From an uncultured bacterium (lineage in GTDB: Bacteria > Abyssobacteria > SURF-5), in contig CAZSKP010000006.1 of NCBI GenBank assembly GCA_964607485.1, positions 75,344-139,343 of the forward strand: DNA of 64,000 nucleotides, written 5' to 3'. This document shows, piece by piece, positions 24,840 through 46,715 of the stretch. Each line of letters begins with the position of its first letter. Within the stretch, counting starts at the first letter, position 1. The position numbers and the translations under genes were made by a program. The notes beneath the pieces were generated by a model, which was not told the origin of the DNA, did no database searches, and worked only from the letters and a program-made list of their open reading frames with translations.

Positions 24840-24946
24840 TCCCAATCTGAACTCTTTCACTACCACAGGTCTTCTTGACACACCTCGGCTGTTCCAAATA
24901 TGATTTATGTTTGTGAATCAAGGGCACAAGGGAAATTCACATACCG

Positions 24947-25948: not shown

Positions 25949-25979
25949 GCCCACAGGCGAGACGGAACAGCGGTCGGCG

Positions 25980-27440
25980 ATGCGGGCGCCGTTTTCCCGG
26001 ATTCTCGAAAGGCTATCCGTTCCCGACGACATCGTCCGCCTCTCCACGGATACCGTTTACTACGGCGTCGGCAAGGGAGCCGAGGCGCTGGCGGCTCTCG
26101 TTCTGATTCCCGTGCTCACGCGCGCCTTTTCCCCCGCCCAGTTCGGCCTGTGGGACGTCACCATGACGTTCTTCCTGCTCACGACGACCGTGGCATCTCT
26201 GGCGCTGGAGCCGGCGCTTGCCGCGTTCTACTTCGAGACGCAGCAAGGCGAACAAAGAAGACTCGTCGCCTCGACGTCTGTCCATTTCCGGCTTGTTTCG
26301 TCTGTCCTTGTCGCAATCCCGGTCTTTGCGCTTGCGCCCCACATTTCGCGGATTATATTCGACACGCCCGAACACGCCTCGTATTTTCGGATTGTGGCGG
26401 CTGCCATCCCATTCTTTCTCATGGTCAACGTATTCAAGCAGATCCTTCGCATCGACTTCGCCCCGGGGAAATTCAACGTCGTCGCGGTGGGCCACGCGTG
26501 CCTTTACGCGGCGCTGGGCATTTTTCTCGTAACGACGATGCAGATGGGAGTGACGGGAATTTTGCTCGGCATGCTCGGGGCGGCAGTTTGTTTTTCGTTG
26601 GTCGGCGGGGCGCTGGCTTCGCGGCTGGTTTCCTTTGAGTTCTCGGGCCGGGAGCTCAAGAATATGCTCGCCTTCGGCCTTCCATTGCTGCCCTCCCTGT
26701 TGGCGTACTGGGTGATCGATTTTTCGGACCGATACTTTCTGACGAAGCTCAGCACGCTCGAGCAGGTGGGCATCTATTCGGTGGGCGCCAGGATAAGCTC
26801 GATAATTATCCTGTTCGTCACCTCGTTCCAGATGGCATGGGCTCCGGTGGCACTGAGCTTTCAGCACCGGCCGGACGCGAAGGAACGATATTCCCGCGGC
26901 CTTTTCTTCTTCCTTGTCGTCGCCCTCACGGCAGCCACCGCCATCGTCGTCTTCGCCAGGCCTATCCTCATCGTTTTAACTCAGCCGAAATATTATGGGG
27001 CGGAGAAGGTGGTCGGCCTGCTTGTGCTGGCGACCGTCGCTTTTGGCGCGTTCCTCATCATAAACATCGGCCTAATACTCACGAAGAAGACCTCGCTCAC
27101 CAGCATTGCCATCGCGGTAGGAGCTGTCATCAACCTCGCGCTGAACTATCTGCTCATTCCCCGGTTCCAGATGATGGGCGCCGCGGTCGCAACGCTGGTT
27201 TCGTATTCTGTGGCTGTGGCGCTCCTGTACCGGTTCGCCCAAAGACACTATCCGATAGACTACGGAATTCCGCGGATAGCCAAGCTCGCGTTGCTGGCGG
27301 TTGGCGTGATGGCAGTCGCGACGGTAATTACTTTTGAGAAGTCGGTGTTCATGGATTCGCTGTTCGGCGTTGTGCTCATGGCGGTATTCCTGTTTTTGCT
27401 CATCCGCTATTTCTTACGCGACCGGATAAGGACCGAATGA
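25980..27440 (+). CDS. Wzx-like oligosaccharide flippase (MOP family)
   Basis: PVLTRAFSPAQFG, SDRYFL, VGIYSVG, LNYLLIPRFQMMGAAVAT; about 14 TMs. Confidence 0.88.
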   Translation: MRAPFSRILERLSVPDDIVRLSTDTVYYGVGKGAEALAALVLIPVLTRAFSPAQFGLWDVTMTFFLLTTTVASLALEPALAAFYFETQQGEQRRLVASTSVHFRLVSSVLVAIPVFALAPHISRIIFDTPEHASYFRIVAAAIPFFLMVNVFKQILRIDFAPGKFNVVAVGHACLYAALGIFLVTTMQMGVTGILLGMLGAAVCFSLVGGALASRLVSFEFSGRELKNMLAFGLPLLPSLLAYWVIDFSDRYFLTKLSTLEQVGIYSVGARISSIIILFVTSFQMAWAPVALSFQHRPDAKERYSRGLFFFLVVALTAATAIVVFARPILIVLTQPKYYGAEKVVGLLVLATVAFGAFLIINIGLILTKKTSLTSIAIAVGAVINLALNYLLIPRFQMMGAAVATLVSYSVAVALLYRFAQRHYPIDYGIPRIAKLALLAVGVMAVATVITFEKSVFMDSLFGVVLMAVFLFLLIRYFLRDRIRTE

Positions 27441-29305
27441 TGGAATCGATGGACGACACGCGCGACGGAACGAGGCCCGGGCGGAACTCTATGTTTGCGG
27501 CCGGCCTGTTGCTATGTTTCCTGGCAGCGCTCGTCTTCGCCAACTCGTTCAAGAACGATTTTGTCGGATATGACGACCAGAACCTCATAGTGAATAATCC
27601 CGCGATTCGCAGCCTGTCGCCTGACAATGTCGCTCAGATGTTTGTACCGAAGCTCAGGGGCAACTACCAGCCGATTCGCACGCTGTCGTATGCCATCGAT
27701 TACGCCATCTGGGGAGCGCGCCCTCTGGGCTTTCATCTGACGAACATTGTTCTCCATGCGTTGACCGTGGTCTGCGTCTGGCTTCTGCTTCGTGGCCTGT
27801 TGTCTGAGCCGGTTGCCCTGCTCGCGGCAATGCTCTTTGCGGTGCACCCTATCCACGTGGAGAGCGTGACGTGGATGTCGGCCCGGAAGGATCTTCTGTC
27901 GCTGGCCTTCTTCTTGTTGGCGATTCTGTGGTACGAAAAGTCGGAGTCGAGCGGAAAGGTCGTTCCATACGTGGGCTCAATCATCGCGACCGCGCTCGCG
28001 CTGCTTTCCAAGCTGACGGCCGTATCGCTGCCGTTCTGCATCTTGCTGCTGGAATTCTGTCGGCATGGTCGGCCGGGAGCGGCCGAACTGGGGCGAAAGC
28101 TGGTTCGCCTGTTGCCGCATTTTCTCCTGGTATGCCTGGTCGTGGGGCTGAACTTTCTCCGCGTCGGGACGATGCCCACGCATGGCGACGCGTTGGTCGG
28201 GCTTGAACAAGCTGGACACCCGTTCGTTCGCGACGTGTGGCTGAGCATGCCGATGGTTGTCTGCCGGTATATCGGTCTGCTGCTCGTCCCCTGCCGTTTG
28301 AGCACGCATTACGACGTGACCCGGCTCACGGACTTGGCCGATGCTCGGGTGCTCGTTCCTTCGGCATTTCTCGCAGCGGTCGTTCTCATTGGAGTTGTTG
28401 CTTTCTTTCGCGGCCGCATGGCGCTCGCATTTTGCATCGGATGGTTTGTCATCACGTTTCTGCCCACGTCCAATCTGGTTCCGACGGCCGCAATGATGAC
28501 CGACCGGTATATGCACATCCCCTCCATCGGATTTGCCGCCCTTCTCGCCATGGCTTTGACGTATCCCATCAAGAAAATGTCCGGCGCCACAAATCCGACC
28601 GTCCGCCTGCTTGCGCTGGCGCCGGCCCTAATCGTCATGTTGCTGTTTTCAGTGCTGACGGTCCGGCGCAACACCGATTGGCGCGACACGACCTCGTTGT
28701 TCTCCCGAACGCTGCTCGTTAATCCAAGGAGCGTCGATGCCAGGCTGGCTATCGGCGCGATGTACGACAGGGCGGGCGATTACAACGCCGCCATCGAGAT
28801 GTATCGGAGCGCGCTCGACATCGTCCCCGGCCATTATCGCGTTCTCTACGATTTGGGTGTGTCGTACATGAAGAAGGGCTGGCTCCATCAGGCCATTGAG
28901 GCCCTCGAGGAATCCCGCGCGGCGAATCCGGATTTTCTGGCGACGCATTTCAACCTTGCGCTTTCCTATCACGAACAGGGACGGTACGATGATGCGATTG
29001 CCGAGCACAGGGAAGTTTTGAGGATCAACCCCCGTTATGCCGCATCGCACGGCGATCTCGGCCGCATTTACATCGAGATGGGTGAGCCGGAACTGGCGCT
29101 GAAGGAGCTGAATCGTGCTCTCACTATCCAGCCCGACCTGGCGCCCGCCCTCATCGACAGGGCCGGCCTGTTGATACGTGAGGGCCGTTACGAAGACGCC
29201 GAGCAGGACATACGAAAGCTCGCGTCGCTCGGCGTCGATACGAGCGAATTGCGGGAAAAGCTGGTTACGGCCCGGAAAGCGAAACAGGAATCCCCTTCCG
29301 ATTGA
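27437..29305 (+). CDS. TMTC-like GT-C protein O-glycosyltransferase with C-terminal TPRs
   Basis: FVGYDD..IVNN, YQPIRTLSY, FHLTNIVLH, FAVHPIHVESVTW, DRYMHIP, RNTDWRD, followed by TPR repeats. Confidence 0.85.
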   Translation: MMESMDDTRDGTRPGRNSMFAAGLLLCFLAALVFANSFKNDFVGYDDQNLIVNNPAIRSLSPDNVAQMFVPKLRGNYQPIRTLSYAIDYAIWGARPLGFHLTNIVLHALTVVCVWLLLRGLLSEPVALLAAMLFAVHPIHVESVTWMSARKDLLSLAFFLLAILWYEKSESSGKVVPYVGSIIATALALLSKLTAVSLPFCILLLEFCRHGRPGAAELGRKLVRLLPHFLLVCLVVGLNFLRVGTMPTHGDALVGLEQAGHPFVRDVWLSMPMVVCRYIGLLLVPCRLSTHYDVTRLTDLADARVLVPSAFLAAVVLIGVVAFFRGRMALAFCIGWFVITFLPTSNLVPTAAMMTDRYMHIPSIGFAALLAMALTYPIKKMSGATNPTVRLLALAPALIVMLLFSVLTVRRNTDWRDTTSLFSRTLLVNPRSVDARLAIGAMYDRAGDYNAAIEMYRSALDIVPGHYRVLYDLGVSYMKKGWLHQAIEALEESRAANPDFLATHFNLALSYHEQGRYDDAIAEHREVLRINPRYAASHGDLGRIYIEMGEPELALKELNRALTIQPDLAPALIDRAGLLIREGRYEDAEQDIRKLASLGVDTSELREKLVTARKAKQESPSD

Positions 29306-29322
29306 CCGGTACGCTCGGAGGG

Positions 29323-30978
29323 TCAGTCGAGCGAGTACAGATCTCTTAGAACGGTTTTCAGTTCCTCCGGAGAGGAAGGCGCGAGGACGCCCCCCGTATA
29401 AACGAGGAAAGGCGAGACGCCGTATCTGTCCCAATCGAGCAGGTATCGGGAATCTTTTCGGAGGATCCCGAGGTCGATAAGCCTGCGCCAACGCGCCGCA
29501 ATTTGGGGGTTCTGCAGGCTTTCTTCGGAGAGATACACATGGCGGCCCATCGCCGCGATTTTGAAATAGGCCGATTCGGCGTTGGAAAGAGAGCCTTGCG
29601 GCACCCTGTCGAGCGTGACGATTCGTACGGCCTCGATTGAATCGTCTTCATAAGCAAGCCAGAGCGCATAAGTAAGGTTGTCGAATCTGAATACCAACGC
29701 GCCCCCAATGGAATCGGGCACGTTCAGGAAGAAGAACGTTTTGTTCCGTGGGGGCGTCGGATAAGAGCGTGTCGTTTGTTCGACTACACTGCCGGCAACC
29801 TCGGAAGCATATCTCCATATCTCCTGCCTCTCCTTGAGAAAGAAGCAGCTCGACGTTGCGTACATGACCACAAAAAAAGACGTGAGCGCAATCGATGCTC
29901 CGTTCGTCCGACGGGTTATCCACTCGGCGAATCTGAACAAGACGATAGAGACAAGGAGGGCCGCGCCGACGGAGCCCAGCACCACATGCCTCTCCGATGG
30001 CACCAGCCCAAGCGCCATGACGGGCGCGGCGCTCGCCAGAATCCACCACAGCAGAAACGTGAGCCGGAATCTCTTGAGAGCTACCGGGACCACGGCGACC
30101 ATGATAATGGCGCACGCGGCGAGGATATAGAATACTGTTCCGGCCGCAGCCAGCCTGTCGAACCAATTCAGCGCAAGAGCCCAATCGATTGGAGAAAGAG
30201 TCATTATCAGCGAATACCAGAGCCCCAGCATCATAATGTGCCAGTCGAAGGAGGTAACGGAAGGCGGCAATTCGGCCTGTCTCATCACCAGGCTTCGAAG
30301 CGCGATGAACAGAATCCCTATGAGAACGAAAGGCCAGCCGCTTTTCGCCGCGCGCTTCGCCGCCGTGGGCCAGCGCACTTCTCCTCCCAATAGCAGGTCA
30401 TAGAGAATAAGGACAATAGGGAGGACGACCGCCGATTCCTTCGTGAACACAGCCAGGACAAAGAAGATCAGCGAAAGCGCGTAAGCGAAACGTCTGGAGC
30501 TTCGACGCCAGAAAACGAAGAAGATGAGCGATGTTAGAACGAGAATGTTCTCGACAGCTCCGTTCAGGCTTGAAATCCAGAAGATTACCTCGGCATGCAC
30601 GGTCGACGTCAGGAAGATGACCGCCGCAGCCAGCGCCATGGACCAACGCTCGCACAGGAGCAGTCCGAGCACATAGACCTGCATACAGAGCAGCGCGTAG
30701 CACACCAGGCTCACTGCGTGAAATGCCCCGGCCCACAGCCCGAACGATTTCGCCAAGACTTCGAAGAATATCTTGATGCCGGGTCGATAATACACTCCCC
30801 ACGACGGCTTCAGGAATTCCGTGAGTCCTTCGCTCAGCGTGTCGGCCGGTCGGTTGAGCGCATGGTAGAGGACGATGTAATCGTCGGAATTGAAACCGTG
30901 GCTCACCGTCCTGCCGAAGAGGATGCAGACGAGAGCGATAAGAGAGAGCACGGCAACGATGTGTCTGTATTTCCCCAC
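29323..30978 (-). CDS. TMTC/PMT-like GT-C membrane protein without TPRs
   Basis: FNSDDY, YYRP, HAEVIFWIS, TKES, ERH. Confidence 0.7.
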   Translation of the reverse strand: MGKYRHIVAVLSLIALVCILFGRTVSHGFNSDDYIVLYHALNRPADTLSEGLTEFLKPSWGVYYRPGIKIFFEVLAKSFGLWAGAFHAVSLVCYALLCMQVYVLGLLLCERWSMALAAAVIFLTSTVHAEVIFWISSLNGAVENILVLTSLIFFVFWRRSSRRFAYALSLIFFVLAVFTKESAVVLPIVLILYDLLLGGEVRWPTAAKRAAKSGWPFVLIGILFIALRSLVMRQAELPPSVTSFDWHIMMLGLWYSLIMTLSPIDWALALNWFDRLAAAGTVFYILAACAIIMVAVVPVALKRFRLTFLLWWILASAAPVMALGLVPSERHVVLGSVGAALLVSIVLFRFAEWITRRTNGASIALTSFFVVMYATSSCFFLKERQEIWRYASEVAGSVVEQTTRSYPTPPRNKTFFFLNVPDSIGGALVFRFDNLTYALWLAYEDDSIEAVRIVTLDRVPQGSLSNAESAYFKIAAMGRHVYLSEESLQNPQIAARWRRLIDLGILRKDSRYLLDWDRYGVSPFLVYTGGVLAPSSPEELKTVLRDLYSLD

Positions 30979-30998
30979 TGATTTTCCCTAAGGTTCAC

Positions 30999-31730
30999 TT
31001 ACCCCTTCGAGGCGACCATCAGTATCGAGAGCCCGAACGGCAGGTCGCGTCGGTCGAGCAGCCGGCGTTCCACCCTCATGACTCCGAGCAGGACCCGGTT
31101 GAGCAGCTTCAGGTTCTCATAATACCTGATGCGGTATTTTGACGGATCTCTCCTGAACTTTCCAAGGGTCAGCCTCGCTGCCGCGACGGGCGGGAAGAGA
31201 AGGGTGTTGAAATAGCTCAGGCGCTCAACAATGTAACCGGCGGCCTCCGCCTTACGCGACAGTTCCCGCTTGGAGTATCTCCGCCTGTGATGCAGCGCGA
31301 CATCGTGCGCGCTCCACAGCGTCTCGTGAGCGGGAACGCTTGCCAGCAGCCTGCCCCGAGGCGCGGTGACCCTGTGCAGTTCGCCGAGCACCGCCTCGTC
31401 GTGCTCGCAGTGCTCGAGCAAGTCTGCAGCGACGACCAGCTCGAATGCGTCTGACCCGAAGGGGAGCATGCCGGCATCGGCCTGGCACAGTTTGGCTAAT
31501 CCGACGCTGCGGCAATGAGTCAGTGCGCCGATGTTGTCGTCTATTCCAAACACGGGGCCGACGCTCGCGAACCTCTTCATCATCAGCCCCGAGCCGCATC
31601 CGACGTCGAGGATCCGTTTGCCGCGAAGCTCTTCCCGGTATGCGCTGAAAAACAGGAGATCGCGGGTTCCGACAAACCACCAGTGATTTTCGCCGAGCCG
31701 AAAAAGCTGGGCGTACTCTTCAGGATTCAT
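30999..31730 (-). CDS. Class I SAM-dependent methyltransferase
   Basis: ENHWWF, ILDVGCGSG, DLLEH, LWSAHD..LHHRRRY. ATGA overlap with the upstream gene. Confidence 0.88.
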   Translation of the reverse strand: MNPEEYAQLFRLGENHWWFVGTRDLLFFSAYREELRGKRILDVGCGSGLMMKRFASVGPVFGIDDNIGALTHCRSVGLAKLCQADAGMLPFGSDAFELVVAADLLEHCEHDEAVLGELHRVTAPRGRLLASVPAHETLWSAHDVALHHRRRYSKRELSRKAEAAGYIVERLSYFNTLLFPPVAAARLTLGKFRRDPSKYRIRYYENLKLLNRVLLGVMRVERRLLDRRDLPFGLSILMVASKG

Positions 31731-32626
31731 TCGACGCTGTCTGTCTTTCTCCCATACACGAGCATTATGTCGAACGGGTTGACATAGACCACGCGGTCGG
31801 CGATGCGAAGCAGCCGAGCCGCTCGGGAGAGCAGGCGTTGCGTCGCCGAGCTGTATTGTCCCGCCCTCTTGATGAAGAATTGCACGTCTATGTATTTGCC
31901 GACGTGTGTCAACCGAACGGGCTCGAAATGGTACTTGACGAGAAAACGGCGGATGGTGTCGGGTGAGAAATAGTACAGGTGCTCTCCCTGTTTGATGCCC
32001 ATCCAGCGAGTGCGCCATATCCGTGCAGGCAGGCTGGAGACATCCGGAGTGGTGAGCGCCAGCAGTCCTCCCTTTTTCAGAAGCCGGTTTGCGTGGACCA
32101 GTTCCTTCGCCGGACGGGGACAGTGTTCGATGTAGTCCCACATGGTTATCACATCGAAAGCCGCAGGTTCCAGGTGTGCATCGTCCAGCGAGCCGCACAA
32201 TATGTCGATGCCCAGATTGCGCCGCGCAAACTCGCAGGCGAATTCGGATATCTCTATTCCCTCCGCCTCCCAGCCCAGTTGCCTGGCGACTTCGAGTGAG
32301 AATCCCGTCGCGCAGCCCACGTCGAGGAGCTTCCCTTTGCCTCCCATCCATTCTTCAATTTCATTCATGCGCTTTTGAAAGGTTTTCGAGATCTTGGCTC
32401 GGTCGGCGATGTAGTCGTCGTATCCCAGCGCGGCGGAATCGGCGCTCCGGAAATAGGCTTCCGAGTACAGCCGCTTCAGCTCTTCCCGGTCGGGAATCTC
32501 ATCGGCGCGCACCAGCCCGCAGCCTGTGCATTGGAGTATCCCGAGGTTTGGGTAGAGGTGTCGGGCCGATTGAGAGCCGCAGAGGTCGCATGGAGAAGCG
32601 TCAGTCGTTGGCGGGCGCGGATTCAT
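31727..32626 (-). CDS. Class I SAM-dependent methyltransferase with N-terminal Zn ribbon
   Basis: CDLC...CTGC, LLDVGCATG, DYIEH, EHLYYF. Confidence 0.88.
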   Translation of the reverse strand: MNPRPPTTDASPCDLCGSQSARHLYPNLGILQCTGCGLVRADEIPDREELKRLYSEAYFRSADSAALGYDDYIADRAKISKTFQKRMNEIEEWMGGKGKLLDVGCATGFSLEVARQLGWEAEGIEISEFACEFARRNLGIDILCGSLDDAHLEPAAFDVITMWDYIEHCPRPAKELVHANRLLKKGGLLALTTPDVSSLPARIWRTRWMGIKQGEHLYYFSPDTIRRFLVKYHFEPVRLTHVGKYIDVQFFIKRAGQYSSATQRLLSRAARLLRIADRVVYVNPFDIMLVYGRKTDSVE

Positions 32627-33350
32627 ATCGTCTTTTCCGGTCGTTGATGCGCACCTTCACGATCTCGAGCAGCATCGGGAGCGTATGCTTCAGCACGCTG
32701 ACCTTTGTGGAGGGCGAATTGTTCCAGGTGACTCCGATTTCGCCGATGCGGTAGCCGAATTTGCGGGCCAGAAAGAGTGCCTCGACGTCGAAACCGAAGC
32801 CGTCGAGACGCGCGACCGAAAATATCTTCGTTGCCGAGCCGTCCTCGAAATACTTGAACCCGCATTGGGTGTCTCGAACCTTGGGCACGGCCAGCAGGCG
32901 CACTATCTTGTTGAACACCTTGCCGCTCAGTTCCCTGTACCAGGGTCGCCAGCCCACTATGACCGAATCACTAAGAGCCCTCGACCCGACAACCACGTCG
33001 CAGCCGTTTTTCGCGCCTTGCTTCAGCTTTTCCAGTTCCTCGATGGGGGTCGCGAGGTCGGCGTCGGAGAGGAGCACGTCCTTTGCGCTCGCGTTGAGCA
33101 TGCCCGTCCGCACGGCGCAGCCTTTGCCTCGATTCGGATGATAACTGATGAGTCGTATGCGGCTATCCTTGCGAGCGTAACTTTCAACGACTTCATCCGT
33201 GGAGTCGATGCTTCCGTCGCTCACGACGATTATCTCGTAGTCGATTCCGCGGTTGGTCAGATGTGTGGATATGGCCTCCAGTGTGGAACCAATTCGTTCG
33301 GCCTCGTTGTAAGCGGGAATGACAACGGAGAGCTCGGTTGTATGTGCCAT
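32601..33350 (-). CDS. Dolichyl/polyprenyl-phosphate beta-glucosyltransferase-like GT2
   Basis: SVVIPAYNE, DGSID, NRGKG, DADLATP, DTQCGFK, FGFDVE. Confidence 0.9.
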   Translation of the reverse strand: MAHTTELSVVIPAYNEAERIGSTLEAISTHLTNRGIDYEIIVVSDGSIDSTDEVVESYARKDSRIRLISYHPNRGKGCAVRTGMLNASAKDVLLSDADLATPIEELEKLKQGAKNGCDVVVGSRALSDSVIVGWRPWYRELSGKVFNKIVRLLAVPKVRDTQCGFKYFEDGSATKIFSVARLDGFGFDVEALFLARKFGYRIGEIGVTWNNSPSTKVSVLKHTLPMLLEIVKVRINDRKRRYESAPAND

Positions 33351-35264: not shown

Positions 35265-35756
35265 TCAGCGGTCTGCCGACCCGCTCAGGCTCCATTTTGG
35301 GACGAGGTCGTCCAGCAGAGCCTTCACGTACTTCTCGATTTCCTCGTACGTGGAAATGAAATACTCTATCGGCGCCCCGTAGGGGTCTTCGACGTCACGG
35401 CCGCGGACGTGGGGAGGACCGAAATCTGTCAACAAGCGATACTTGCCGCCGCTGTCCCCGCATATGACACCGGCTTCTCTGAGATGGTTTCTCTCCAGTC
35501 CGATAACAAGGTCGGCCCTCTTGAGCATCTGCCGTGTGACTTGCCGGGCCCGATGGCGCGACAGGTCAACACCCCGTTCGGCCGCCACCTCGACGGCAAG
35601 CTCGGCCGCGGTCTGACCGATCAGCGCTAACGTGCCCGCCGATGAGACGGTGACGGAATTTATCCCTCTTTTCGCCAGCTCTTGCTTCAGGATTCCCTCG
35701 GCTATAGGAGACCTGCACAGGTTGCCGGTACAGAGAAACAGTACATGTCTGCTCAT
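35265..35756 (-). CDS. Low molecular weight protein phosphatase
   Basis: CTGNLCRS P-loop, SAGT, DVEDPYG. ATG at 35756. Confidence 0.93.
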   Translation of the reverse strand: MSRHVLFLCTGNLCRSPIAEGILKQELAKRGINSVTVSSAGTLALIGQTAAELAVEVAAERGVDLSRHRARQVTRQMLKRADLVIGLERNHLREAGVICGDSGGKYRLLTDFGPPHVRGRDVEDPYGAPIEYFISTYEEIEKYVKALLDDLVPKWSLSGSADR

Positions 35757-35763
35757 CGAGTCT

Positions 35764-35792
35764 AATGTAGAGGAATCGAGGGGTAAAGTCAA
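35764..35792 (-). promoter_or_regulatory. Promoter of LMW-PTP/polX (probably leaderless)
   Basis: TTGACT, 17 nt, TACATT, then 7 nt to the ATG. Confidence 0.55.
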
Positions 35793-35828
35793 GGCGGCCG
35801 AGACGGCCGAAATCGGAGGCAGCGCCTG

Positions 35829-36887
35829 CTACGGAGCTTGGCCTTTGGAGCCCGATTGTATTTCCTTGCGGAGGCCTTCAACGAGCGAGCGGCACTCAGG
35901 GTCGGTCTTCTGGAGGGTCTTGATCTTGCGGCAGGCGTGCAGGACGGTCGTGTGGTCCTTCCTGCCGAAAACCTGTCCGATCTCGGAGAGCGAGGCCGAG
36001 GTGAGCTCGCGACTCAGATACATGGCCACCTGACGCGGAAACGCCACGGAGCGCGAACGGCGGGGCGAGGTGAAATCGGATTCCTTGATGCCGAAGAATT
36101 TGGCGGCGATTTGCCTTATGCCGTCCACCGTGACCTCGGAGATTCGCCCGCGCTTGATTATGTCTGCAAGCACCTCCCTCACAAGCTTCGGTGAGGGCGA
36201 CTCCCCGCGAACGCCTGCCGTCGCTATCGTTCTTGTGAGCACTCCCTCCAGCTCGCGTATGTTTGAGCTCACATGCTCGGCTATCAGCCTCAGCACGTCC
36301 GTCGAGAGCTCGACCTTGCAGTTCTCGGCTTTCTTTCTGAGTATGGCGACGCGGGTGTCGAAATCGGGCGGCTCCAGCGCCGCCACGAGTCCCCATTCGA
36401 ACCTGCTCACCAGACGGTCCTCGAGCGTGGGTATCTGCTTGGGAGGACGGTCGGACGAGATGACTATCTGCTTCTTCTTATCGTGAAGCGCGTTGAACGT
36501 ATGAAAGAACTCCTCCTGGGTGGCGTCCTTTCCGGCGATGAAATGAATGTCGTCTATGAGCAAGAAATCGATGCTCCGAAACCTTTGTCGAAACTCCTCC
36601 GTCGCCCTGTTCTGAATGGCCATAATCAACTGATTCGTGAAATGCTCCGTCGAAAGGTATGCGGCCTTCAGCCTGCCCGTATGCCGCGAAAGCGCGTGGT
36701 GACCGATGGCCTGCATCAGATGCGTCTTGCCCAGGCCCACGCCCCCGTGCAGGAAGAGGGGGTTATACAGCTCGGCGGGAGTTTCGGCCACCCCTTTGGC
36801 CGCCGAATGCGCAAACAGGTTGCATGAACCGACCACAAAGTTTTCGAAGGTGTACTGGGGATTGAGCGTTGAACGGGAGTATCGCAT
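35829..36887 (-). CDS. dnaA: DnaA-family protein, domains III-IV only (352 aa)
   Basis: LNPQYTFENFVVG, YNPLFLHGGVGLGKTHL, DDIHF, TQEEFFHTFN, RLVSRFEWGL, NIRELEG, RQVAMYL, DHTTVLHA. In-frame stop shortly upstream of the ATG. Confidence 0.92.
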   Translation of the reverse strand: MRYSRSTLNPQYTFENFVVGSCNLFAHSAAKGVAETPAELYNPLFLHGGVGLGKTHLMQAIGHHALSRHTGRLKAAYLSTEHFTNQLIMAIQNRATEEFRQRFRSIDFLLIDDIHFIAGKDATQEEFFHTFNALHDKKKQIVISSDRPPKQIPTLEDRLVSRFEWGLVAALEPPDFDTRVAILRKKAENCKVELSTDVLRLIAEHVSSNIRELEGVLTRTIATAGVRGESPSPKLVREVLADIIKRGRISEVTVDGIRQIAAKFFGIKESDFTSPRRSRSVAFPRQVAMYLSRELTSASLSEIGQVFGRKDHTTVLHACRKIKTLQKTDPECRSLVEGLRKEIQSGSKGQAP

Positions 36888-36936
36888 GGATATACCAAAC
36901 GGTCAATCGGGCTTGCCTAAAGAGTTTCTCAAGGAC

Positions 36937-37050
36937 ACATCCACAAAATTATCAACATTTCCCATGTCGTCTCATAAGCTACTGTTGCTGAATTGGTTAG
37001 CCTGACTTCAAGCACCAATATCGGCTATCTTATCCACAGTCTTATTCACA
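36937..37050 (+). promoter_or_regulatory. DnaA box cluster (two tandem pairs)
   Basis: ACATCCACA 36937-45, TTATCAACA 36949-57, TTATCCACA 37030-38, TTATTCACA 37042-50; 3-nt gap within each pair. Confidence 0.8.
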
Positions 37051-37337
37051 GGTCTCAGTTGTAACATGTCGCTACAAAACCACGGAAGCCCGCCCCAGAA
37101 GGTCGTTGAACGAACGATTAGCATGGACGTCTCCCAGGAAGGTGCTTATGCCTTTCTTGTCCATCTCTTTCTGTGTCTTGGGGTTTGGCGACCATCGGCA
37201 TATTGTAATAAATAGTGACACTTCAAACACTCCGACCACGCGCACCCATTGAGATACAGAGAAAGCGGCGCACAATCAGTCTTGCCACCCAATCGGGGTT
37301 GCCGTCAGTGCTCAGAGATGATTTTCCGGAGGGGTTA

Positions 37338-39103: not shown

Positions 39104-40897
39104 TCAGCTGACGCTCTTCACCAGTTTCAGTCCCGGCAACACGTCGTCCTGCTGGGTGACCGACACGGCCTCCTCGATCGTGGTCGTGCCCGAAAACACT
39201 TTGAGCCAGGCGTCGTCCCGAAGGGTTCTCATTCCATCCCGCCGCGCCTGGTTTTTCAAATTGAGTGTGGGCTCGTGCTTGAGCACCATCTCGCGGATGA
39301 TTTCATTCATCATTAAAAGTTCCAGCACGGTAGTTCGGCCGTGGTAGCCGGTGCGGTTGCAGCTCTCACACCCTGTGCCCTTATAGAAGGTGATGTCTCG
39401 GACTTCATCGGGGTCAAGGCCCAGCTGGCGCAGTTGGTCGTCGCTCGGATGGTCCTCGACCTTGCAGCTCCTGCAGATTTTCCGGACGAGGCGCTGCGCC
39501 GATATGGCCTGAACGGCGGAGGACACGAGGAAGGGTTTTATGCCCATGTCGATGAGTCGGTTCAACGCGCCGGCTGAGTCGTTGGTATGAAGCGTGCTGA
39601 ACACGAGGTGTCCGGTGAGAGCCGACCGGATGGCGATCTCCGCGGTCTCGCTGTCGCGGATTTCACCGACCATCACGATATCGGGCGACTGTCGGAGGAT
39701 CGACCTCAGCCCGGCGGCGAAGGTAAGGCCTATCTCGGAATCGATCTGCACCTGATTTATGCCCGACAGAACGTACTCGACCGGGTTCTCGATGGTGATT
39801 ATCTTGCGTTCGGGCGTGTTGATGGTATTGAGCGACGCGTACAGCGTGGTCGTCTTGCCCGAGCCGGTCGGCCCGGTCACCAGCACGATGCCCGTGGGGA
39901 TATGCAGCAGGCTTTCCCATTGCCTGAGCGTGTCAACGGCGTAACCGAGGTCGCGCAGGTCGAGTGCCAGGCTGCTCTTGTCGAGGATTCGGAGAACGAA
40001 ACTTTCGCCGTATATCGCCGGAAGCGCGGAAGCGCGGAGGTCGATGTCCTTGCCCATCAATTGCAGTTTTATGCGGCCGTCCTGCGGGATTCTCTTTTCC
40101 GAAATGTCCATTCCGGCCATCAGCTTCAGACGGGAGAGGATGGCGTTCTGCAGCGCTTTGGGAGGCGGGTTCACCTCGTGCAGAATGCCGTCGATGCGGT
40201 ACCGGACCTTCAGTTCGCGCTCGAACGGCTCTATATGGATGTCGCTCGCGCGGTGCCTGAACGCTTCGAGGATCAGCAGGGTGACCAGTTTGATTATGGG
40301 CCCTTCGTCGCCCTCCTCGTCGTCGCCGCCCTCCATTATCGAACCGTCGAATTCGATGCTCTCGACGCTCAGACTGCTCACGCTCAAACTGCTCACCGTG
40401 CTCAGGCTGTCTCCGCTCACCTGGGACAACATGGTATCGACGGTGACCTCCTCGAGGCCGTAGTATTTGCGGATGGCTTCCTTGATGTCCTCCGGTGTGG
40501 CCAACACGGGGCTTATGTTGCACTCGAGCAGCAGGCGCAGATTATCTACCACGCCGAGGTTCGTCGGGTCGAACATGGCCACGTAAAGGGTGTTGCCCTC
40601 TTTCCGGACGGGGACAACCTGATAGATTTTTGCGATAGACGGTTGTACGAAATCTATCAGTTGCTGCGAAATTTCCAGATTGGACAAGTTCACCAACGGG
40701 AGGTTAAGCTGAGTGGCGAGGGCTTCGGCCAGATGCTTGGAGGTTATGTAGCCAAAACTGACGAGAACGTCGCCCAGCCGCTTGCTGCTGGCGCGTGTCT
40801 GCTGCCGTTTCAGGGCATCCTTGAGCTGCTCCTGTGTGATGGCGCCCTGAGCCAGCAATATCTGCCCTAACGACTTGCTGCTCTCAACTACCGCCAT
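39104..40897 (-). CDS. PilB/GspE-family secretion ATPase with Ser-rich acidic linker
   Basis: MshEN-like N-terminus, [35 protein letters not shown]. Confidence 0.92.
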   Translation of the reverse strand: MAVVESSKSLGQILLAQGAITQEQLKDALKRQQTRASSKRLGDVLVSFGYITSKHLAEALATQLNLPLVNLSNLEISQQLIDFVQPSIAKIYQVVPVRKEGNTLYVAMFDPTNLGVVDNLRLLLECNISPVLATPEDIKEAIRKYYGLEEVTVDTMLSQVSGDSLSTVSSLSVSSLSVESIEFDGSIMEGGDDEEGDEGPIIKLVTLLILEAFRHRASDIHIEPFERELKVRYRIDGILHEVNPPPKALQNAILSRLKLMAGMDISEKRIPQDGRIKLQLMGKDIDLRASALPAIYGESFVLRILDKSSLALDLRDLGYAVDTLRQWESLLHIPTGIVLVTGPTGSGKTTTLYASLNTINTPERKIITIENPVEYVLSGINQVQIDSEIGLTFAAGLRSILRQSPDIVMVGEIRDSETAEIAIRSALTGHLVFSTLHTNDSAGALNRLIDMGIKPFLVSSAVQAISAQRLVRKICRSCKVEDHPSDDQLRQLGLDPDEVRDITFYKGTGCESCNRTGYHGRTTVLELLMMNEIIREMVLKHEPTLNLKNQARRDGMRTLRDDAWLKVFSGTTTIEEAVSVTQQDDVLPGLKLVKSVS

Positions 40898-41016: not shown

Positions 41017-41541
41017 TTAGGACATGCCTATCGAAGTGACCAGCATCGACACGTTCAATCCTCCGCCCAATCGCGATTCGGGCTGGATGCGGATGCTTGC
41101 GATGGCAACCGCCGCGCCGGTTCTCTCGATTTCATACAGATAGGCTACCAGATTCTCCAGCGATATTCCTTCCAGCCTGACCTCAACCATGTCCTCGGCA
41201 AGATCGCCGCCAAGATTGCGACGAGATGGTTTCATCGAGGTCAAGTTCTTCTTCAGATTGAGCCTGTTTGCGGTTTGGTCGAGGAAGGAGAACAACGCGA
41301 AGTCACGCGAGCGTCCGCTCACACCCTGCTTGATCTCCTTGGTTTCCTTGAGTATCTGGTCGTATTCCTGCTCGAGCAGTCTCAGGTCGATAAGCTGAGC
41401 GCGGGCCCGCTTTATCCGATTGTCCAAATCGGCTCGTTTTTTCAGCGTCGGGGAAATGACCAGCATATGAATGAGCACCCCGACCACCACGGCGGCAGCG
41501 GCCGCGATAAGCTTTCTCTCTCTCGTTTTGAGACCTGTCAT
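41017..41541 (-). CDS. gspM: Type II secretion protein M
   Basis: LKTRERKL plus TM, coiled coil, ferredoxin-like C-terminus; operon position. Confidence 0.75.
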   Translation of the reverse strand: MTGLKTRERKLIAAAAAVVVGVLIHMLVISPTLKKRADLDNRIKRARAQLIDLRLLEQEYDQILKETKEIKQGVSGRSRDFALFSFLDQTANRLNLKKNLTSMKPSRRNLGGDLAEDMVEVRLEGISLENLVAYLYEIERTGAAVAIASIRIQPESRLGGGLNVSMLVTSIGMS

Positions 41542-43031
41542 GGGTTATCCCCGGTCCTCGCGCCGGCGTCCGATTGGAATTCGTTTCGTATCCTCGCCCG
41601 GATCCTGAAATTCACTTTTTCACCCTTTTCCGCCTTTGTGGCGGAATCGATTTTCACTTCGTAGAGCAAAGGTGATTTTTCCAGCCGGCCATTGAATATG
41701 TTGATGTCATCGAAGGAATCCACCTCGCCCGTCATGCGGAGGACATTGTCTGAAATAGCCAGGTCGTTCAGCGCAAGGTTCTTCTTGTCGGGTATGCTCG
41801 CCGTCACCTCGGAGAGAACGTTGAGCGGCGACACGTATGTCGAGGAATAGTTTCTGAGCGACTTGAACTTATCCTGCTCCTCTTTTACTCTCTGCTCGGC
41901 TACCTCGGGAGAATTGATTCCGGGAAGAGTGTCCGCGAAAATCTTCAGCATTTCCCGGTTCAACGATTCCAGTTGGCGCGATTCCTGACGAATCTCGGCT
42001 GCGACGCTGCCGAACCACGCGACCAACGCCACCGCGAGAACGACAAGGCTGAAATAAATGTTTGACTTCACCCGGGAGAGCGGGGAGAGGGGGGCATATT
42101 CCTCCCGCCTGAAGTTGACCTCGTTTGCCGACGTTCCCAGTCCGACGCGGGCAAGAGCTATCGCAAGCCGGAAATCGTCGGCTCTGTCCAAGAGCGGCGG
42201 AGGAATTTCGGCGAGAGTTCCCTCGTTGAATCCGACTGTCCTCACGGGGAAATCGCGAAGCGACCCTTGCAGGATTTTGCGCATGTTGTCCGCGCCCGTG
42301 CCGGCTATACACAGCGTGCCGACCTCCGCGCTCACCGAGGATTGAAAGGAGAAAAGCGACCGCTGTATCTCCTTGACCATCTTCTTTGCGGCCTGTTCGT
42401 CGCCCGGGGACATTCCGTCGAGATTCCTGTAACCGAGCAGCTTCTCTCCGCTGAAGAAGCCCAGGAAAGAACCGCTGCTGTCCACATGCAGCAGAGCCGT
42501 GGCTTTATCGGGCGAAAAATCGAACGGATTCATGTAGAAGTCCGCCAGCGCCAGCGCATCGAGCGTGATGACCTGCGGGTCCACGCCGGCCATCTCGAAC
42601 AGCTGCAATCGTTCCGATATGAGGTTCTTCGTCACGGCTATCGCGAGTAGTTCGGCGCCGGCATCCGTCTCCCGCATCGCGACATAGTCGGAGACAACCT
42701 GCTCGATGGGATACGGAATCTGGGGTTCAATCTGAAACTTCAACGTCTGCCTGAGCTTGCCGGGGTCGGTAATGGGAGTGGCCAACGTTCGGTTTATGCT
42801 TGCGGAGGCGGGCAGACAGGCGACCGAGGTGTCGCCGTCGAGCCCGCTTTCTTCGAACATTTGTCGTATCACTGAAGCTGTCGCCGCCTTTGCCTCCTGC
42901 CCGGATGTTTGCGGAATCTCTCTCTCTATCAGGTCCAGCACCCTCATTCGTCCGCCCTGGCCGCTGGCCACGGCTATCTTCACGCAATCCGGCTGAATGT
43001 CGATCCCAATGCTTTTGCTCTGGAATATCAT
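41538..43031 (-). CDS. gspL: Type II secretion protein L (PilM/PilN-like)
   Basis: IGIDI actin-like N-domain, VNFRREEY, TM, PilN-like C-domain. ATGA overlap with gspK. Confidence 0.8.
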   Translation of the reverse strand: MIFQSKSIGIDIQPDCVKIAVASGQGGRMRVLDLIEREIPQTSGQEAKAATASVIRQMFEESGLDGDTSVACLPASASINRTLATPITDPGKLRQTLKFQIEPQIPYPIEQVVSDYVAMRETDAGAELLAIAVTKNLISERLQLFEMAGVDPQVITLDALALADFYMNPFDFSPDKATALLHVDSSGSFLGFFSGEKLLGYRNLDGMSPGDEQAAKKMVKEIQRSLFSFQSSVSAEVGTLCIAGTGADNMRKILQGSLRDFPVRTVGFNEGTLAEIPPPLLDRADDFRLAIALARVGLGTSANEVNFRREEYAPLSPLSRVKSNIYFSLVVLAVALVAWFGSVAAEIRQESRQLESLNREMLKIFADTLPGINSPEVAEQRVKEEQDKFKSLRNYSSTYVSPLNVLSEVTASIPDKKNLALNDLAISDNVLRMTGEVDSFDDINIFNGRLEKSPLLYEVKIDSATKAEKGEKVNFRIRARIRNEFQSDAGARTGDNP

Positions 43032-44098
43032 CTGTCCACTTTCCAAAACGCAGTGTCGATGCTGAAGTACTCGTGGTCCGCCTGCTGCTCATCGGCGTGG
43101 ACGCGCTTCAGAAGAGCTCTTATCTTCACGTCCCGTGTCGGCGGCTCTTTGGTCGATGACTCTTCGGTTTGTGGCGCTTGGGAGAGAACGCGTCCGCTCG
43201 ATTCCGCCAGAAAGTACGAGCTTCGGGTTGTGAACTTCTCCGAAAGGTTGACATCGGGAATGCGGCCGGCCATGTCCTGGGCGCTTTCGAACGGGGAGGT
43301 CTGCCGCATGTCCACTATCGTCGAAGCGAGAGACTCGCTGTTCAGAAGAGCCGCGACCACCTGTTCGGGCGCAGTGTTGATGTTGACGAGCCCGTCCTCG
43401 TCTCCGAAGACAGTGACGAAATCCGCCAGGCCGGGGTTCTTATCGTCTCCGTACAGAGTCTTCTTGTCAAACCCCTTCACGAGCAACAGCTCTTCGACGC
43501 TGTCCATCGGTCCGTTCTTGCATTTCATTGGCGGGTCCAGAGATTCGTAGTATGCATTCTCTGCGCCGAAAGGCTGCTCCTGGTCGTTTTCATCCAGCCA
43601 GTCCACGATGCAGTCAACTAGGTTAGGGTCGATCTCCAGCAGTTCGAACAAGTGCCTGAAACTCTCAACCATCGACACGTTCAGGCTCTCGATGTCATAC
43701 TCGGTCGTGGGTCTCTTTATCAAACGGTTCAAGTTGAGCTTGGACATCTCGTCCGAGATACGCGTCTCGGCTTCCGTAGATGCCGTCTCCACTTTGATTT
43801 CCGACGCCCACTCCTCATTGAGCGTGTCGGCCGTCAGCCCGGTTTCGAAATCCGTCATGACGTCGTTCAGCAGCATGGCCTTGGCCTTCTCGACGCCCGC
43901 GCGCGCCGCCGCCTCGGCCCGGAGGTTTTCGACCATGTTGCCCGAGAGCGTCGCGTGAACCCGCATGAGATAATTGAATTCCAACACAACGACGGACAGA
44001 ATGACGGTGACGAGCAGGGTCAACAGCAAGGCCATCCCCCCTTCGTCACACGCGGCCCTTACTGGTCGCTCTCGGCTTATTATGGGGCATTTGTTCAT
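43028..44098 (-). CDS. gspK: Type II secretion minor pseudopilin K
   Basis: GG|MALLLTL, DEMSKLNLN, DWLDEND, EELLLVKG, VNINTAP. Confidence 0.9.
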   Translation of the reverse strand: MNKCPIISRERPVRAACDEGGMALLLTLLVTVILSVVVLEFNYLMRVHATLSGNMVENLRAEAAARAGVEKAKAMLLNDVMTDFETGLTADTLNEEWASEIKVETASTEAETRISDEMSKLNLNRLIKRPTTEYDIESLNVSMVESFRHLFELLEIDPNLVDCIVDWLDENDQEQPFGAENAYYESLDPPMKCKNGPMDSVEELLLVKGFDKKTLYGDDKNPGLADFVTVFGDEDGLVNINTAPEQVVAALLNSESLASTIVDMRQTSPFESAQDMAGRIPDVNLSEKFTTRSSYFLAESSGRVLSQAPQTEESSTKEPPTRDVKIRALLKRVHADEQQADHEYFSIDTAFWKVDR

Positions 44099-44192
44099 TC
44101 TGTGTCAAGCCTGCAATGTTCGCTTGCGCACGCGGACTCACCTGCGTTTTGCATCCTCGGCCGCATGCGCCGAGCCCGCCGATTCCCCCGTT

Positions 44193-45071
44193 TCAGAAAG
44201 TGAGCGATGAATCGGACGACTCGTCGGATTTGGGAAACTCGATCGGTTCATCCGATTCAGCAGGAGCGTCCCCCGACGCCTCCCCTTCGGGCGCTTCTTC
44301 AACCTGTTCGGTCTCTTTGGTCTCTTCCGTCTCTTCTGTTTCTTCCGGTTCCTGGGCCGGCGGTTCCATCGGCTGTTCGAGCAGCGTATTCACTTCGACG
44401 TGAGCGATCGTGGAAAACGTATATGTGTCGCCGTTCGAATCTGCCAGCTCGAGGGCGACCCTGACGGCGTCGGGCAGCACCCCTTGGTCCTCATACTTCC
44501 ACTCCTGAAGCCAGTCGGCGCCGTCGGAATATTCAAGGTTGAGGGAGCGGATATTCAGCGACCATTGAGGCGTCGCCTCCTCGTCCTCCGACTTCAGCAG
44601 CAGCGGCTCCACCGTGCACTTCAGGACGAACGGATTGTTTTCGTCTCCAAACAGTTCGGCGTCCTCGAGGTCCTGTGCACGGACGACTTCGTAACTGACA
44701 CGCGCGGTTTCGCCCGGCATCGCGCGTGTGCCGAAGCGGGGATTGGTCGTGAAGGCGCTCAATGAATCCGCATCGGAATTTTCGATTAGGGTATCCGTCC
44801 CGAGGAAGACAGACTGGTCGTCGTCTTCCGGCGAATAGCTTCCCGCGAACGGGACGTAGGCCGATGATACGTTCCGGGAGATATTGCTGAGGATGAAGTT
44901 GGCGCGGTGATAGATGGCCGCGCGCTCTTCCTGTTCCTCCGCGTTCCTGACGGTGTAGAAGAACGTGCCGAAAATGATGCTGAATATCATCGCGAGGATT
45001 GTGATGGCTACCAGAATCTCAATCAGGGTGAATCCTTCGCAGGCGGCCCTCTTGTTCACGGACGCTTTCAT
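44193..45071 (-). CDS. gspJ: Type II secretion pseudopilin J with acidic tail
   Basis: G|FTLIEILVA, W...LPDAVRV. Confidence 0.85.
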   Translation of the reverse strand: MKASVNKRAACEGFTLIEILVAITILAMIFSIIFGTFFYTVRNAEEQEERAAIYHRANFILSNISRNVSSAYVPFAGSYSPEDDDQSVFLGTDTLIENSDADSLSAFTTNPRFGTRAMPGETARVSYEVVRAQDLEDAELFGDENNPFVLKCTVEPLLLKSEDEEATPQWSLNIRSLNLEYSDGADWLQEWKYEDQGVLPDAVRVALELADSNGDTYTFSTIAHVEVNTLLEQPMEPPAQEPEETEETEETKETEQVEEAPEGEASGDAPAESDEPIEFPKSDESSDSSLTF

Positions 45072-45436
45072 TCGACCAAGGCCCTCGCAACGAAAGTCTC
45101 CAGCGCGAACTCGCTCTCCGGAAACTTGATCGTTATCGTCACCTTCTTGAGATTCTTGACATCGGCGTCCTCGACTTCCAGCTCCCATTCACAGTTGGGA
45201 TACTGGGATTCGAAATCGCCTGAATCGCTCGCGAGAGAATCGAACGGGGTCGTGAGAATCTCTTCCATCTTTTGGCGGGCCAGCAGCGCGGCCAGCGTCT
45301 GTTCGCGGTTTTTCTCGGCGAGGTTCAGGCTCATCAGGTGGGTTCCAAGCAGAGTCACGAGCGCGGTTGCGATGATGCTGAGCGCCACCATCACTTCCAA
45401 CAGCGTGAATCCTCTGTTTGAACGATGTGCGGTCAT
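45068..45436 (-). CDS. gspI: Type II secretion pseudopilin I
   Basis: RG|FTLLEVMVALSI; small size; operon position. Confidence 0.85.
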   Translation of the reverse strand: MTAHRSNRGFTLLEVMVALSIIATALVTLLGTHLMSLNLAEKNREQTLAALLARQKMEEILTTPFDSLASDSGDFESQYPNCEWELEVEDADVKNLKKVTITIKFPESEFALETFVARALVE

Positions 45437-46023
45437 CCGGTTTCGCTGCTCAGGGGAAGAAGCGTGGGAATGCCTGTCACGCCATCATACAGGACGGCGA
45501 ACCTTCCCCCGTCCTCGTTCGCGAGATATATAGTGGCGGGACTCGCGTTGCCAAGCGGGCTGAACTCGATGTATTGCGGGCCGAGCGACGCCGTGGTGCG
45601 CTCTTCCCGCACCTCGACCGATGAAAAATGCACACCGGGAGGCAGCTTTCTGGGAGCGAACATGGGCTCGCTCGGAGTGGTCTCCTCGACGTTTCCGCCG
45701 CTTTCCTCATGTTGAAGCAGTTCAAAATGCGTCCCGATTCGAATTCCGGTTGCGCGGGTCGAGCCTTCGCCTTCTTCGACTTCAGTGACCTCCGTTATCC
45801 AGTACTTGTCGGCCGAACTGTCCAGATAGAGCCTGTACGTCTTGTTCTTCGTGACCGACTCGCCATAGGCGAGGCTGATTGTGCCCGAGAGCAGCCGGGC
45901 CGCGCTCTTGAGCCTTCGTTGGGGCACGAAGGGGTCCAGCCGCGGAAGCACGATGGCGGCCATGATACTGATGATCGCCATGACCACGACGAGCTCGACG
46001 AGAGTGAATCCTCTTCTTCTCAT
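45433..46023 (-). CDS. gspH: Type II secretion pseudopilin H
   Basis: RRG|FTLVELVVV, IEFSPLG. Confidence 0.85.
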   Translation of the reverse strand: MRRRGFTLVELVVVMAIISIMAAIVLPRLDPFVPQRRLKSAARLLSGTISLAYGESVTKNKTYRLYLDSSADKYWITEVTEVEEGEGSTRATGIRIGTHFELLQHEESGGNVEETTPSEPMFAPRKLPPGVHFSSVEVREERTTASLGPQYIEFSPLGNASPATIYLANEDGGRFAVLYDGVTGIPTLLPLSSETG

Positions 46024-46070
46024 GTTTCCAACCCTACTCCTGCATTAGGGCCTTCAGTCAAATTACATTC

Positions 46071-46230
46071 ACCGCGAAGACGCAAAGAACGCAAAGAGAT
46101 ACTAGCCACAGCACACTTTCTCTTCCTTTTTTGGTGTCTTGGTGCCTTGGTGGTTCGCGGTCATTTCTCTGCGCCCTTTGCGTCTTTGCGGTTCAAATCT
46201 TATTCGTGGCATTTGTTCCCATTCGTGTTC
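46071..46230. repeat. Nested 8-9-mer tandem repeats forming a long inverted repeat between gspG and gspH
   Basis: ACCGCGAAGACGCAAAGAACGCAAAGA (46071-97) matches the reverse complement of 46166-92 at 23/27. Also TTGGTG units x3 (46131-55) and ATTCGTG-type units (46202-30). Confidence 0.8.
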
Positions 46231-46246
46231 GGGAGTTGTTTCGTCT

Positions 46247-46699
46247 TTACTCGATGTTCCAGCTTTCGATATCGGCGTTTTCGTCTTCGCCGCCCTCAAC
46301 GCCGTCGGCGCCGAGCGACTTTATTTCATAGTCGAACCCGTGAGAGCCGGGCGATTCGTATATGTAAGGGTTGCCCCACGGGTCGTTCGGAACCTTTGCG
46401 CTGTCGAGGTAGCCACCCTTCTTGTATTTCTCGGGGATTCTGCCGGTCGTCGGCTCGACCACGAGCGCCTGCAAGCCCTGCTCGGTTGAAGGGTAGAAGC
46501 CGCTATCCAGCCTGAACAGCTTCAGCCCCGTCTCGAAGCTTCTTATCTGCGCCTTGGCTGCGTTTATCTTCGCGTCCTCGGTTCTCTCGATGAACTTGGG
46601 GGCGATGTAGGCGGCGAGGATGCCTATGATGACGATGACCACCATCAATTCGATCAGCGTGAATCCGCGCTCCGACTTCCGGAAACGGGTTCCGTTCAT
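46247..46699 (-). CDS. gspG: Type II secretion major pseudopilin G
   Basis: RG|FTLIELMVV, YPSTEQGLQALV, DPWGNPYIY, SLGADG. Confidence 0.97.
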   Translation of the reverse strand: MNGTRFRKSERGFTLIELMVVIVIIGILAAYIAPKFIERTEDAKINAAKAQIRSFETGLKLFRLDSGFYPSTEQGLQALVVEPTTGRIPEKYKKGGYLDSAKVPNDPWGNPYIYESPGSHGFDYEIKSLGADGVEGGEDENADIESWNIE

Positions 46700-46715
46700 T
46701 CCCAACACTCCCTCC

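Follow-up and report, generated by a model that had tools for sequence, protein, structure and literature searches.

The window analysed here is a stretch of 64,000 nucleotides from an uncultured bacterium (GTDB lineage Bacteria; Abyssobacteria; SURF-5), corresponding to positions 75,344 to 139,343 of contig CAZSKP010000006.1 in assembly GCA_964607485.1. It carries a dnaA gene, called headless dnaA here, which encodes a DnaA of domains III and IV only and which is intact and expressed-looking. The same architecture was found in a clade of related proteins. The tree and the conservation of these proteins incline us, if only slightly, to see in headless DnaA the DnaA ortholog of an Abyssobacteria-like lineage, with autoregulation by way of DnaA boxes upstream of its gene, and probably the initiator of that lineage. 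The gene and the region in front of it are as follows.

35829..36887, minus strand: headless dnaA, 352 amino acids, domains III and IV, with a start conserved across the clade
36888..37337: intergenic region upstream of dnaA, 450 bp, with no domain I/II remnant and no Rfam match

The 352-residue protein begins with MRYSRSTLNPQYTF, which places just 7 residues ahead of domain III. The AAA+ domain III covers approximately residues 8-245 and the DNA-binding domain IV approximately residues 250-345. A Pfam scan of the protein placed Bac_DnaA (PF00308) at residues 8-169 and the helix-turn-helix family Bac_DnaA_C (PF08299) at residues 255-322, with E values of 5e-68 and 1e-28, respectively, and did not find DnaA_N (PF11638). 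The NCBIfam equivalog for DnaA, TIGR00362, gave 483.9 bits against a cutoff of 343.9, and its match spanned profile positions 101-437 of 437, leaving positions 1-100 unmatched. An in-frame TGA lies 6 codons 5' of the ATG, with more stops further upstream.

For a hidden Markov model (HMM) of domain I and the linker, 70 full-length relatives supplied their N-terminal 91-167 residues; the model was run with all filters off on the 1323 six-frame pieces of the window. No domain I/II remnant or separate copy was found in any frame of the 64 kb (best E 0.78), and there was no match inside the 450-bp intergenic region. DnaA_N was also absent from the 53 open reading frames (ORFs) of the window scanned with Pfam. 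These results bear on the idea of a split initiator, in which domain I would be a separate small gene elsewhere that acts as a non-covalent partner of headless DnaA. With such an arrangement, a sole DnaA and the known requirement for domain I would no longer conflict; nothing speaks for it directly, neither the HMM nor the ORF scan found a piece of this kind in the window, and we consider it very improbable.

Headless DnaA aligned without large gaps to residues 107-444 of Bacillus subtilis DnaA (PDB 8BTG) with an E value of 1e-117, and Thermotoga and Aquifex structures of domains III-IV could be aligned to it as well. Since a solved DnaA is about 55% identical, the fold of the headless protein is not in doubt. 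The 8BTG alignment showed Walker A (GGVGLGKTH), Walker B (LLIDD) and the sensor II motif (SNIRELEG), with R162 opposite the arginine finger R264 of B. subtilis. I88, unchanged in at least 90% of the clade, stood opposite I190, a residue of the initiator-specific motif that binds single-stranded DNA (ssDNA); the roles of R264 and I190 are those given in PMC8287927. Residues G49-H56, D112, D113, R162 and R211 were invariant in all 29 rows of the alignment of the clade. In domain IV, compared with Escherichia coli 1J1V, the equivalents of R399, D433, H434, T435 and H439 were kept and that of P423 was Ser; we take these six E. coli residues to be the base contacts to the DnaA box.

The AAA+ features of a DnaA (Walker A, Walker B, sensor motifs and arginine finger) were thus all found, and the ssDNA-binding residue and, apart from P423, the box-contact residues are kept as well; domain I and the linker domain II were lacking. 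In 208 full-length DnaAs, 109 positions reach a conservation of 95% or more; 89 of these were also kept in at least 90% of the clade and the other 20 showed mostly conservative changes or were retained by the majority of the clade, although the 208 proteins were chosen by similarity to the query and are rich in Bacillota, which tempers these counts as an argument for an initiator. Signature positions specific to the clade numbered just 9, most of them conservative substitutions.

The anatomy given by an earlier sequence-only reading of this DNA therefore stands: a protein of domains III and IV only (Pfam, the span of the TIGR00362 match and the six-frame search agree), a stop codon six codons upstream, a 450-bp region free of domain I-like coding sequence, and intact Walker A and B, arginine finger, sensor II and domain IV signature (8BTG and 1J1V alignments). 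Compared with canonical DnaA (B. subtilis 8BTG; TIGR00362), the headless protein has the same domains III and IV end to end, the same initiator-specific-motif residue and DnaA signature, and boxes of the TTATCCACA type upstream of its gene. Canonical DnaA has domain I, linker domain II and often an adjacent dnaN, whereas the headless form is without all three. The shortest well-studied protein, the compact DnaA of Aquifex aeolicus (PDB 1L8Q/2HCB), aligned through its domains III-IV to residues 7-342 of headless DnaA (E 4e-68). According to the review PMC5448010, the A. aeolicus protein lacks domain II but has a domain I of 74 residues; headless DnaA has neither.

A search of 5.8 billion protein clusters found the headless architecture in 28 further clusters, with lengths of 317-357 amino acids and identities of 61-92%, and PF11638 in none of the 28. 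The next matches listed were at most 59% identical, and 91 of these 92 carry PF11638; the lone exception is a 409-residue protein on a 1284-bp contig. With a profile built from the clade, the same 28 clusters came back at 593-671 bits, followed by a gap and then by full-length proteins at 539 bits or less. The top full-length match of this profile, P0030 (490 amino acids, 1,480,493-bp contig), was set aside. It is a Bacillota-like full-length DnaA with two duplicated segments (the Walker A region and PKEIPTLEDR), probably an assembly or consensus artefact of a public record, and the internal duplications inflated its score. The names given by the sources within the clade are Candidatus Abyssobacteria (SURF_17 and another), Lindowbacteria and Poribacteria; in the NCBI taxonomy, Candidatus Abyssobacteria is a class of Candidatus Hydrogenedentota.

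When the window protein was aligned with the 28 others, 25 of the 29 rows proved N-terminally complete and 4 began inside domain III. The complete rows started at the same column in 22 cases, two residues earlier in 2 and eleven residues earlier in 1; for this last row, the NCBI version (P0127) reads MVLTAYTDRLVLPVPYIQS ahead of the same motif. Independent assemblies from NCBI, JGI, ENA and Logan supplied the rows. The exact 352-residue protein of the window is also present in the protein collection, on a 161,156-bp contig.

These rows bear on whether the gene is an artefact or in decay, that is, a recent pseudogene, a gene with a misassembled 5' end, or one with a wrong start that hides domains I-II. 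In favour of such an explanation, the window protein is not a row of its own in the cluster search, being a non-representative member of the P0001 cluster, and no Shine-Dalgarno-like motif was seen by eye before the ATG. However, the truncation point was the same in 25 of 25 complete rows, in independent assemblies and down to 61% identity, a stop closes the frame with no domain I/II remnant beyond it, and the clade-wide conservation of the sequence points to strong purifying selection. Because the same truncation recurs in independent assemblies, a pseudogene, a misassembly and a mis-called start can be set aside for practical purposes. The sequence-only reading had itself named a pseudogene or a misassembly as what would overturn it; truncation and synteny proved common to the relatives, and that objection fell away.

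To place the clade among other DnaA proteins, species-representative genomes were scanned by DnaA motifs and the best 80 loci were used as comparators. These were ordinary full-length dnaA genes from many phyla, 46-56% identical to the query, and none belonged to the headless clade. All 80 had 99-282 open codons before the equivalent of residue 1, so that the headless form occurred in 0 of 80. Among the best 150 representatives from a library of 1.84 billion proteins, three single-module proteins had fewer than 60 residues before domain III. P0364 (1237-bp contig) and P0424 (3753-bp contig) are singleton clusters, and P0425 (46,717-bp contig) is a singleton with an aberrant C-terminal tail; none of the three is evidence of a second headless lineage. 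The ten nearest clusters shown in the ESM Atlas had representatives of 331-364 amino acids with Bac_DnaA and Bac_DnaA_C, one of them named 'Fragment', and as the Atlas shows just three Pfam families per cluster, headless forms and gene fragments look alike there. The claim is accordingly of a conserved headless clade and not of the only one.

No description of a natural headless DnaA was found in full-text searches of the literature, where the matches concern laboratory truncations. Six supplementary files of the Abyssubacteria genome paper (PMC6121073) contained no dnaA, dnaN, K02313 or K02338, and a Fusobacterium preprint, in which dnaA is replaced by a plasmid Rep, was judged not relevant to headless DnaA. 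The search of representatives in the library of 1.84 billion proteins also turned up DnaA-like proteins with tandem modules, an odd recurrent architecture unrelated to the window. P0325 (697 amino acids, 'AAA family ATPase', from a metagenome-assembled genome of Gemmatimonadota) and P0385 (651 amino acids, 16-member cluster) have two tandem DnaA-type AAA+ modules without domain I and with no obvious domain IV by eye, and P0334 and P0343 are DnaA-like with two matched stretches each.

Domains III-IV of 122 rows were placed in a FastTree phylogeny. The labelled phyla were recovered almost perfectly: 12 groups required 12 changes. All headless proteins fell on one branch (support 100), and its stem measured 0.39 changes per site, similar to the values for Omnitrophota (0.39), Nitrospirota (0.33) and gammaproteobacteria (0.45). 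No full-length sequence in this tree was sister to the headless clade. These sequence comparisons lean towards a clade that behaves as a phylum-level ortholog group without rate acceleration. Together with the gap in the profile scores and the conservation, this is the pattern expected of a vertically inherited initiator whose 5' part was lost in the ancestor of the lineage.

Hda, a regulatory DnaA derivative, is strongly diverged. Since regulatory duplicates of its kind diverge strongly, the pattern described above is less expected of a regulatory duplicate. Headless DnaA resembles Hda/HdaA in being a shortened DnaA relative without domain I and in a weak match to TIGR03420, but this match reached 113.5 bits against a cutoff of 194.8, and other Hda models were far below their cutoffs. 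Hda is without domain IV and far more diverged, whereas domain IV of headless DnaA is intact; the sequence-only reading was right that the protein is not Hda.

The sequence-only reading had gone further and taken the gene for a second, auxiliary DnaA paralog beside a canonical full-length DnaA at oriC. A protein of this kind would bind the same boxes and co-oligomerise through domain III without recruiting the helicase, and its role would be that of an ATP-sensing transcription factor, box titrator or dominant-negative brake on initiation. Nothing in the sequence lies behind this part of the reading, and the indirect evidence leans the other way. Neither the single-sequence search nor the clade profile returned a full-length DnaA of more than 59% identity, and the partner of a duplicate born in the lineage should have surfaced in these searches. 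The absence of rate acceleration and the separate phylum-level group are unlike known regulatory derivatives, headless DnaA scores below the cutoff of the Hda model, and the residues for ssDNA binding and unwinding are kept. We regard a paralog as possible but distinctly the less probable explanation; what speaks for it is taken up below.

The region upstream of headless dnaA contained four DnaA-box-like sites, all in the same direction, which form a 114-bp array 50-160 bp upstream of the gene. A promoter-like match lies among them and a terminator-like hairpin follows the gene.

36937..36945, plus strand: weak DnaA-box-like site, ACATCCACA, 2 mismatches
36949..36957, plus strand: DnaA box, TTATCAACA, 1 mismatch, overlapping the -10 hexamer of the promoter-like site
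36948..36975, minus strand (towards dnaA): sigma-70-like promoter match, ATGAGA-16-GATAAT, a consensus match only
37030..37038, plus strand: perfect DnaA box, TTATCCACA, the sole perfect box in the 64-kb window
37042..37050, plus strand: DnaA box, TTATTCACA, 1 mismatch, in tandem with the perfect box in a 12-bp register
35795..35809, minus strand: possible terminator (weak), a GC-rich hairpin with a T-rich tail just past the dnaA stop

Sites with at most 1 mismatch numbered 14 in the whole window, and 3 of these fell inside 102 bp at the array. By a Poisson estimate the chance of such clustering is about 1e-3 after the scan of the window, which makes it unlikely to be accidental. Upstream of 75 ordinary dnaA loci, 500 bp contained a median of 3 boxes (range 0-12); with 3 boxes, the array is ordinary for a dnaA gene. 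The box array that the sequence-only reading had reported was recovered, but as boxes upstream of dnaA are the norm it carries little weight as an argument for a paralog. Promoter-like sites in the upstream region numbered 5 against 0.8 expected. The boxes sit over and just downstream of the -10 hexamer of the promoter-like match, a layout that, going by these consensus matches, would fit classical dnaA autorepression. Terminator-like hairpins numbered 1 against 1.6 expected and were not significant alone.

In the explanation that we favour, domain IV of headless DnaA would bind the upstream boxes, and ATP-bound protomers would oligomerise through domain III and repress their own promoter, as in classical dnaA autoregulation. 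The same protein would open the chromosomal origin, probably not at this locus, and the helicase would be recruited without DnaA domain I, either through domain III contacts or by another adaptor or loader.

The genes that adjoin headless dnaA were assigned with Pfam.

35265..35792, minus strand: phosphotyrosine phosphatase of the low-molecular-weight family (LMWPc), the downstream neighbour of dnaA
33546..35249, minus strand: PolX, with pol beta-like and PHP domains, two genes downstream of dnaA
37338-39065, 39104-40897 and 48110-49825, all minus strand: GspE/PilB-type ATPases (T2SSE and MshEN domains), three paralogs

Two of the three ATPases stand in tandem directly upstream of dnaA. Beside them lies a type II secretion-like set comprising GspC, D, F, J, K and M and a PilM/N-like gene, and the cluster extends over 41017-52925.

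PolX homologs numbered 38 at 72-100% identity. Homologs of PolX and of headless DnaA were found on contigs of equal size of 84126, 82555, 26768, 9816 and 4825 bp, the equal length in bp of the DnaA-bearing and the PolX-bearing contig being used as the fingerprint of a shared contig. On the 9816- and 4825-bp contigs the two genes necessarily lie within a few kb of each other. No coincidence with PolX contigs was seen for the remaining 23 DnaA clusters, and the count is a lower bound in that the tables show the contig of the representative only and many contigs are shorter than 6 kb. The linkage of PolX and dnaA is kept in at least five relatives, and the locus is stable across the clade.

This stability matters for the possibility that the gene entered the chromosome with a captured mobile element, plasmid or secondary replicon, which it would serve as initiator or regulator. 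The position of the gene away from the usual origin genes, and an ORF with an IS200-like Y1 transposase domain 29 kb from dnaA (6733-7407, minus strand, E 2e-13), would suit a captured element. Headless dnaA nevertheless has housekeeping surroundings in the window (tig-clpP-clpX, the type II secretion system, alr and thiE) in addition to the linkage with PolX. Moreover, a tblastn search of 72,556 plasmid and 50,697 phage records returned ordinary DnaA of less than 60% identity in 65 of 65 plasmid and 44 of 45 phage records, with the remaining phage record in the 60-80% band; many of the plasmid and phage rows listed look like chromosomal DNA filed as plasmid or phage. An origin of this kind appears highly unlikely.

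Several other features of the window were recorded. The IS200-like ORF is followed by several ORFs without a Pfam match (7546-11769). Two adjacent tRNA genes (972-1044 and 1050-1132, plus strand) lie just upstream of the tig-clpP-clpX operon (1106-4380); because the longest tig ORF has its start in overlap with the second tRNA, the real start of tig is probably further downstream. Three glycosyltransferase membrane proteins of the PMT/PMT_2 type (dolichyl-phosphate-mannose-like), one of them TPR-fused, are encoded at 5043-6740, 15772-17520 and 27437-29305. The PMT-type genes lie among further glycosyltransferase and polysaccharide-export genes (21170-33350).

A number of observations count against headless DnaA as the initiator of its lineage, and many of them are also what favours a paralog. 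Scanning the 53 ORFs, which cover 36 kb on one side of the gene and 27 kb on the other, revealed no dnaN, recF, gyrB or rpmH, in agreement with the sequence-only reading, which had named a phosphatase, polX and pilus-type ATPases as the neighbours in their place. In contrast, dnaN was the next downstream ORF in 67 of the 74 comparators in which an ORF of at least 250 amino acids was found. The dnaA-dnaN arrangement, or a place near oriC, is thus common for dnaA and is not seen here. It is not universal, and as 7 of the 74 full-length comparators also have no adjacent dnaN, its absence is not diagnostic and adds little to the case for a paralog.

Nor was a convincing oriC found at the headless dnaA locus, where there are just 3-4 boxes. 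The sole AT-rich patch is about 26 bp long and lies about 150 bp from the boxes. DnaA-trios were sought in the strand orientation presumed from the B. subtilis origin. Under the rule of PMC8287927, which is a lenient one, no run of 3 DnaA-trios was found within 16 nt of a box, barring one inside a neighbouring box; the nearest free run, CTACTGTTGCTG, lies 21 nt from a box. GC skew and third-position GC (GC3) skew showed no switch at the locus and no replication signal anywhere in the window, the replication-like component of the orientation-corrected GC3 skew being -0.003 to the left and +0.015 to the right of 36.9 kb. Third-position GC skew tracked gene orientation alone over the whole window, with a coding-strand component of about -0.075, and skew methods may be poorly suited to this genome. 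An origin elsewhere is compatible with both the initiator and the paralog.

The need for domain I in model organisms is a further point on the same side. According to the review PMC5448010, E. coli DnaA without domains I-II, a laboratory truncation with the same domain content as headless DnaA, binds and still opens oriC in vitro, but it neither supports replication nor is viable; the form in the window is, by contrast, the natural conserved state of a whole clade. The contact between domain I and DnaD of B. subtilis is called essential in a preprint. The need for domain I in these two species is a strong prior against a headless sole initiator, and with 0 of 80 comparators headless, such an initiator has no precedent in that sample.

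Conservation can also be turned against the initiator. A dominant-negative regulator would likewise keep its oligomerisation and DNA-binding surfaces, and an old or horizontally acquired paralog would be compatible with the conservation pattern, as an inhibitor that co-assembles with DnaA would keep the interfaces too. Finally, the PolX homolog of a close relative (P0131, UCD57456.1, 86% identical) lies on a 3,505,456-bp contig of Candidatus Hydrogenedentota for which neither DnaA search gave a DnaA row, although the DnaA tables give the contig of the representative only and the dnaA of this contig may be non-representative or unannotated.

Weighing both sides, we retain a slight preference for headless DnaA as the autoregulated ortholog and probable initiator of the Abyssobacteria-like lineage. 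The broader proposition is that a class-level free-living lineage, the Abyssobacteria-like Hydrogenedentota, relies for replication on a single DnaA devoid of domains I and II and recruits its helicase independently of the DnaA N-terminus; for this the balance appears to us to be even.

In E. coli, B. subtilis and Helicobacter pylori, self-association, the recruitment of the helicase or its adaptors, and most regulators converge on domain I as the hub of DnaA. To our knowledge, the N-terminus of DnaA is treated as essential in every model system. A conserved DnaA that lacks only the domain I hub is a clean natural experiment, and annotation pipelines may call the headless gene DnaA or mark it as truncated, so that it deserves an annotation note. 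Should these bacteria have a canonical DnaA as well, headless DnaA would be a naturally occurring regulator that acts in a dominant-negative way or by titration, a kind for which no description was found in the literature. Should it be the only DnaA of these bacteria, origin opening and helicase loading would be separable from domain I, and another factor would have to take over its role. The clade may thus start replication differently from model bacteria.

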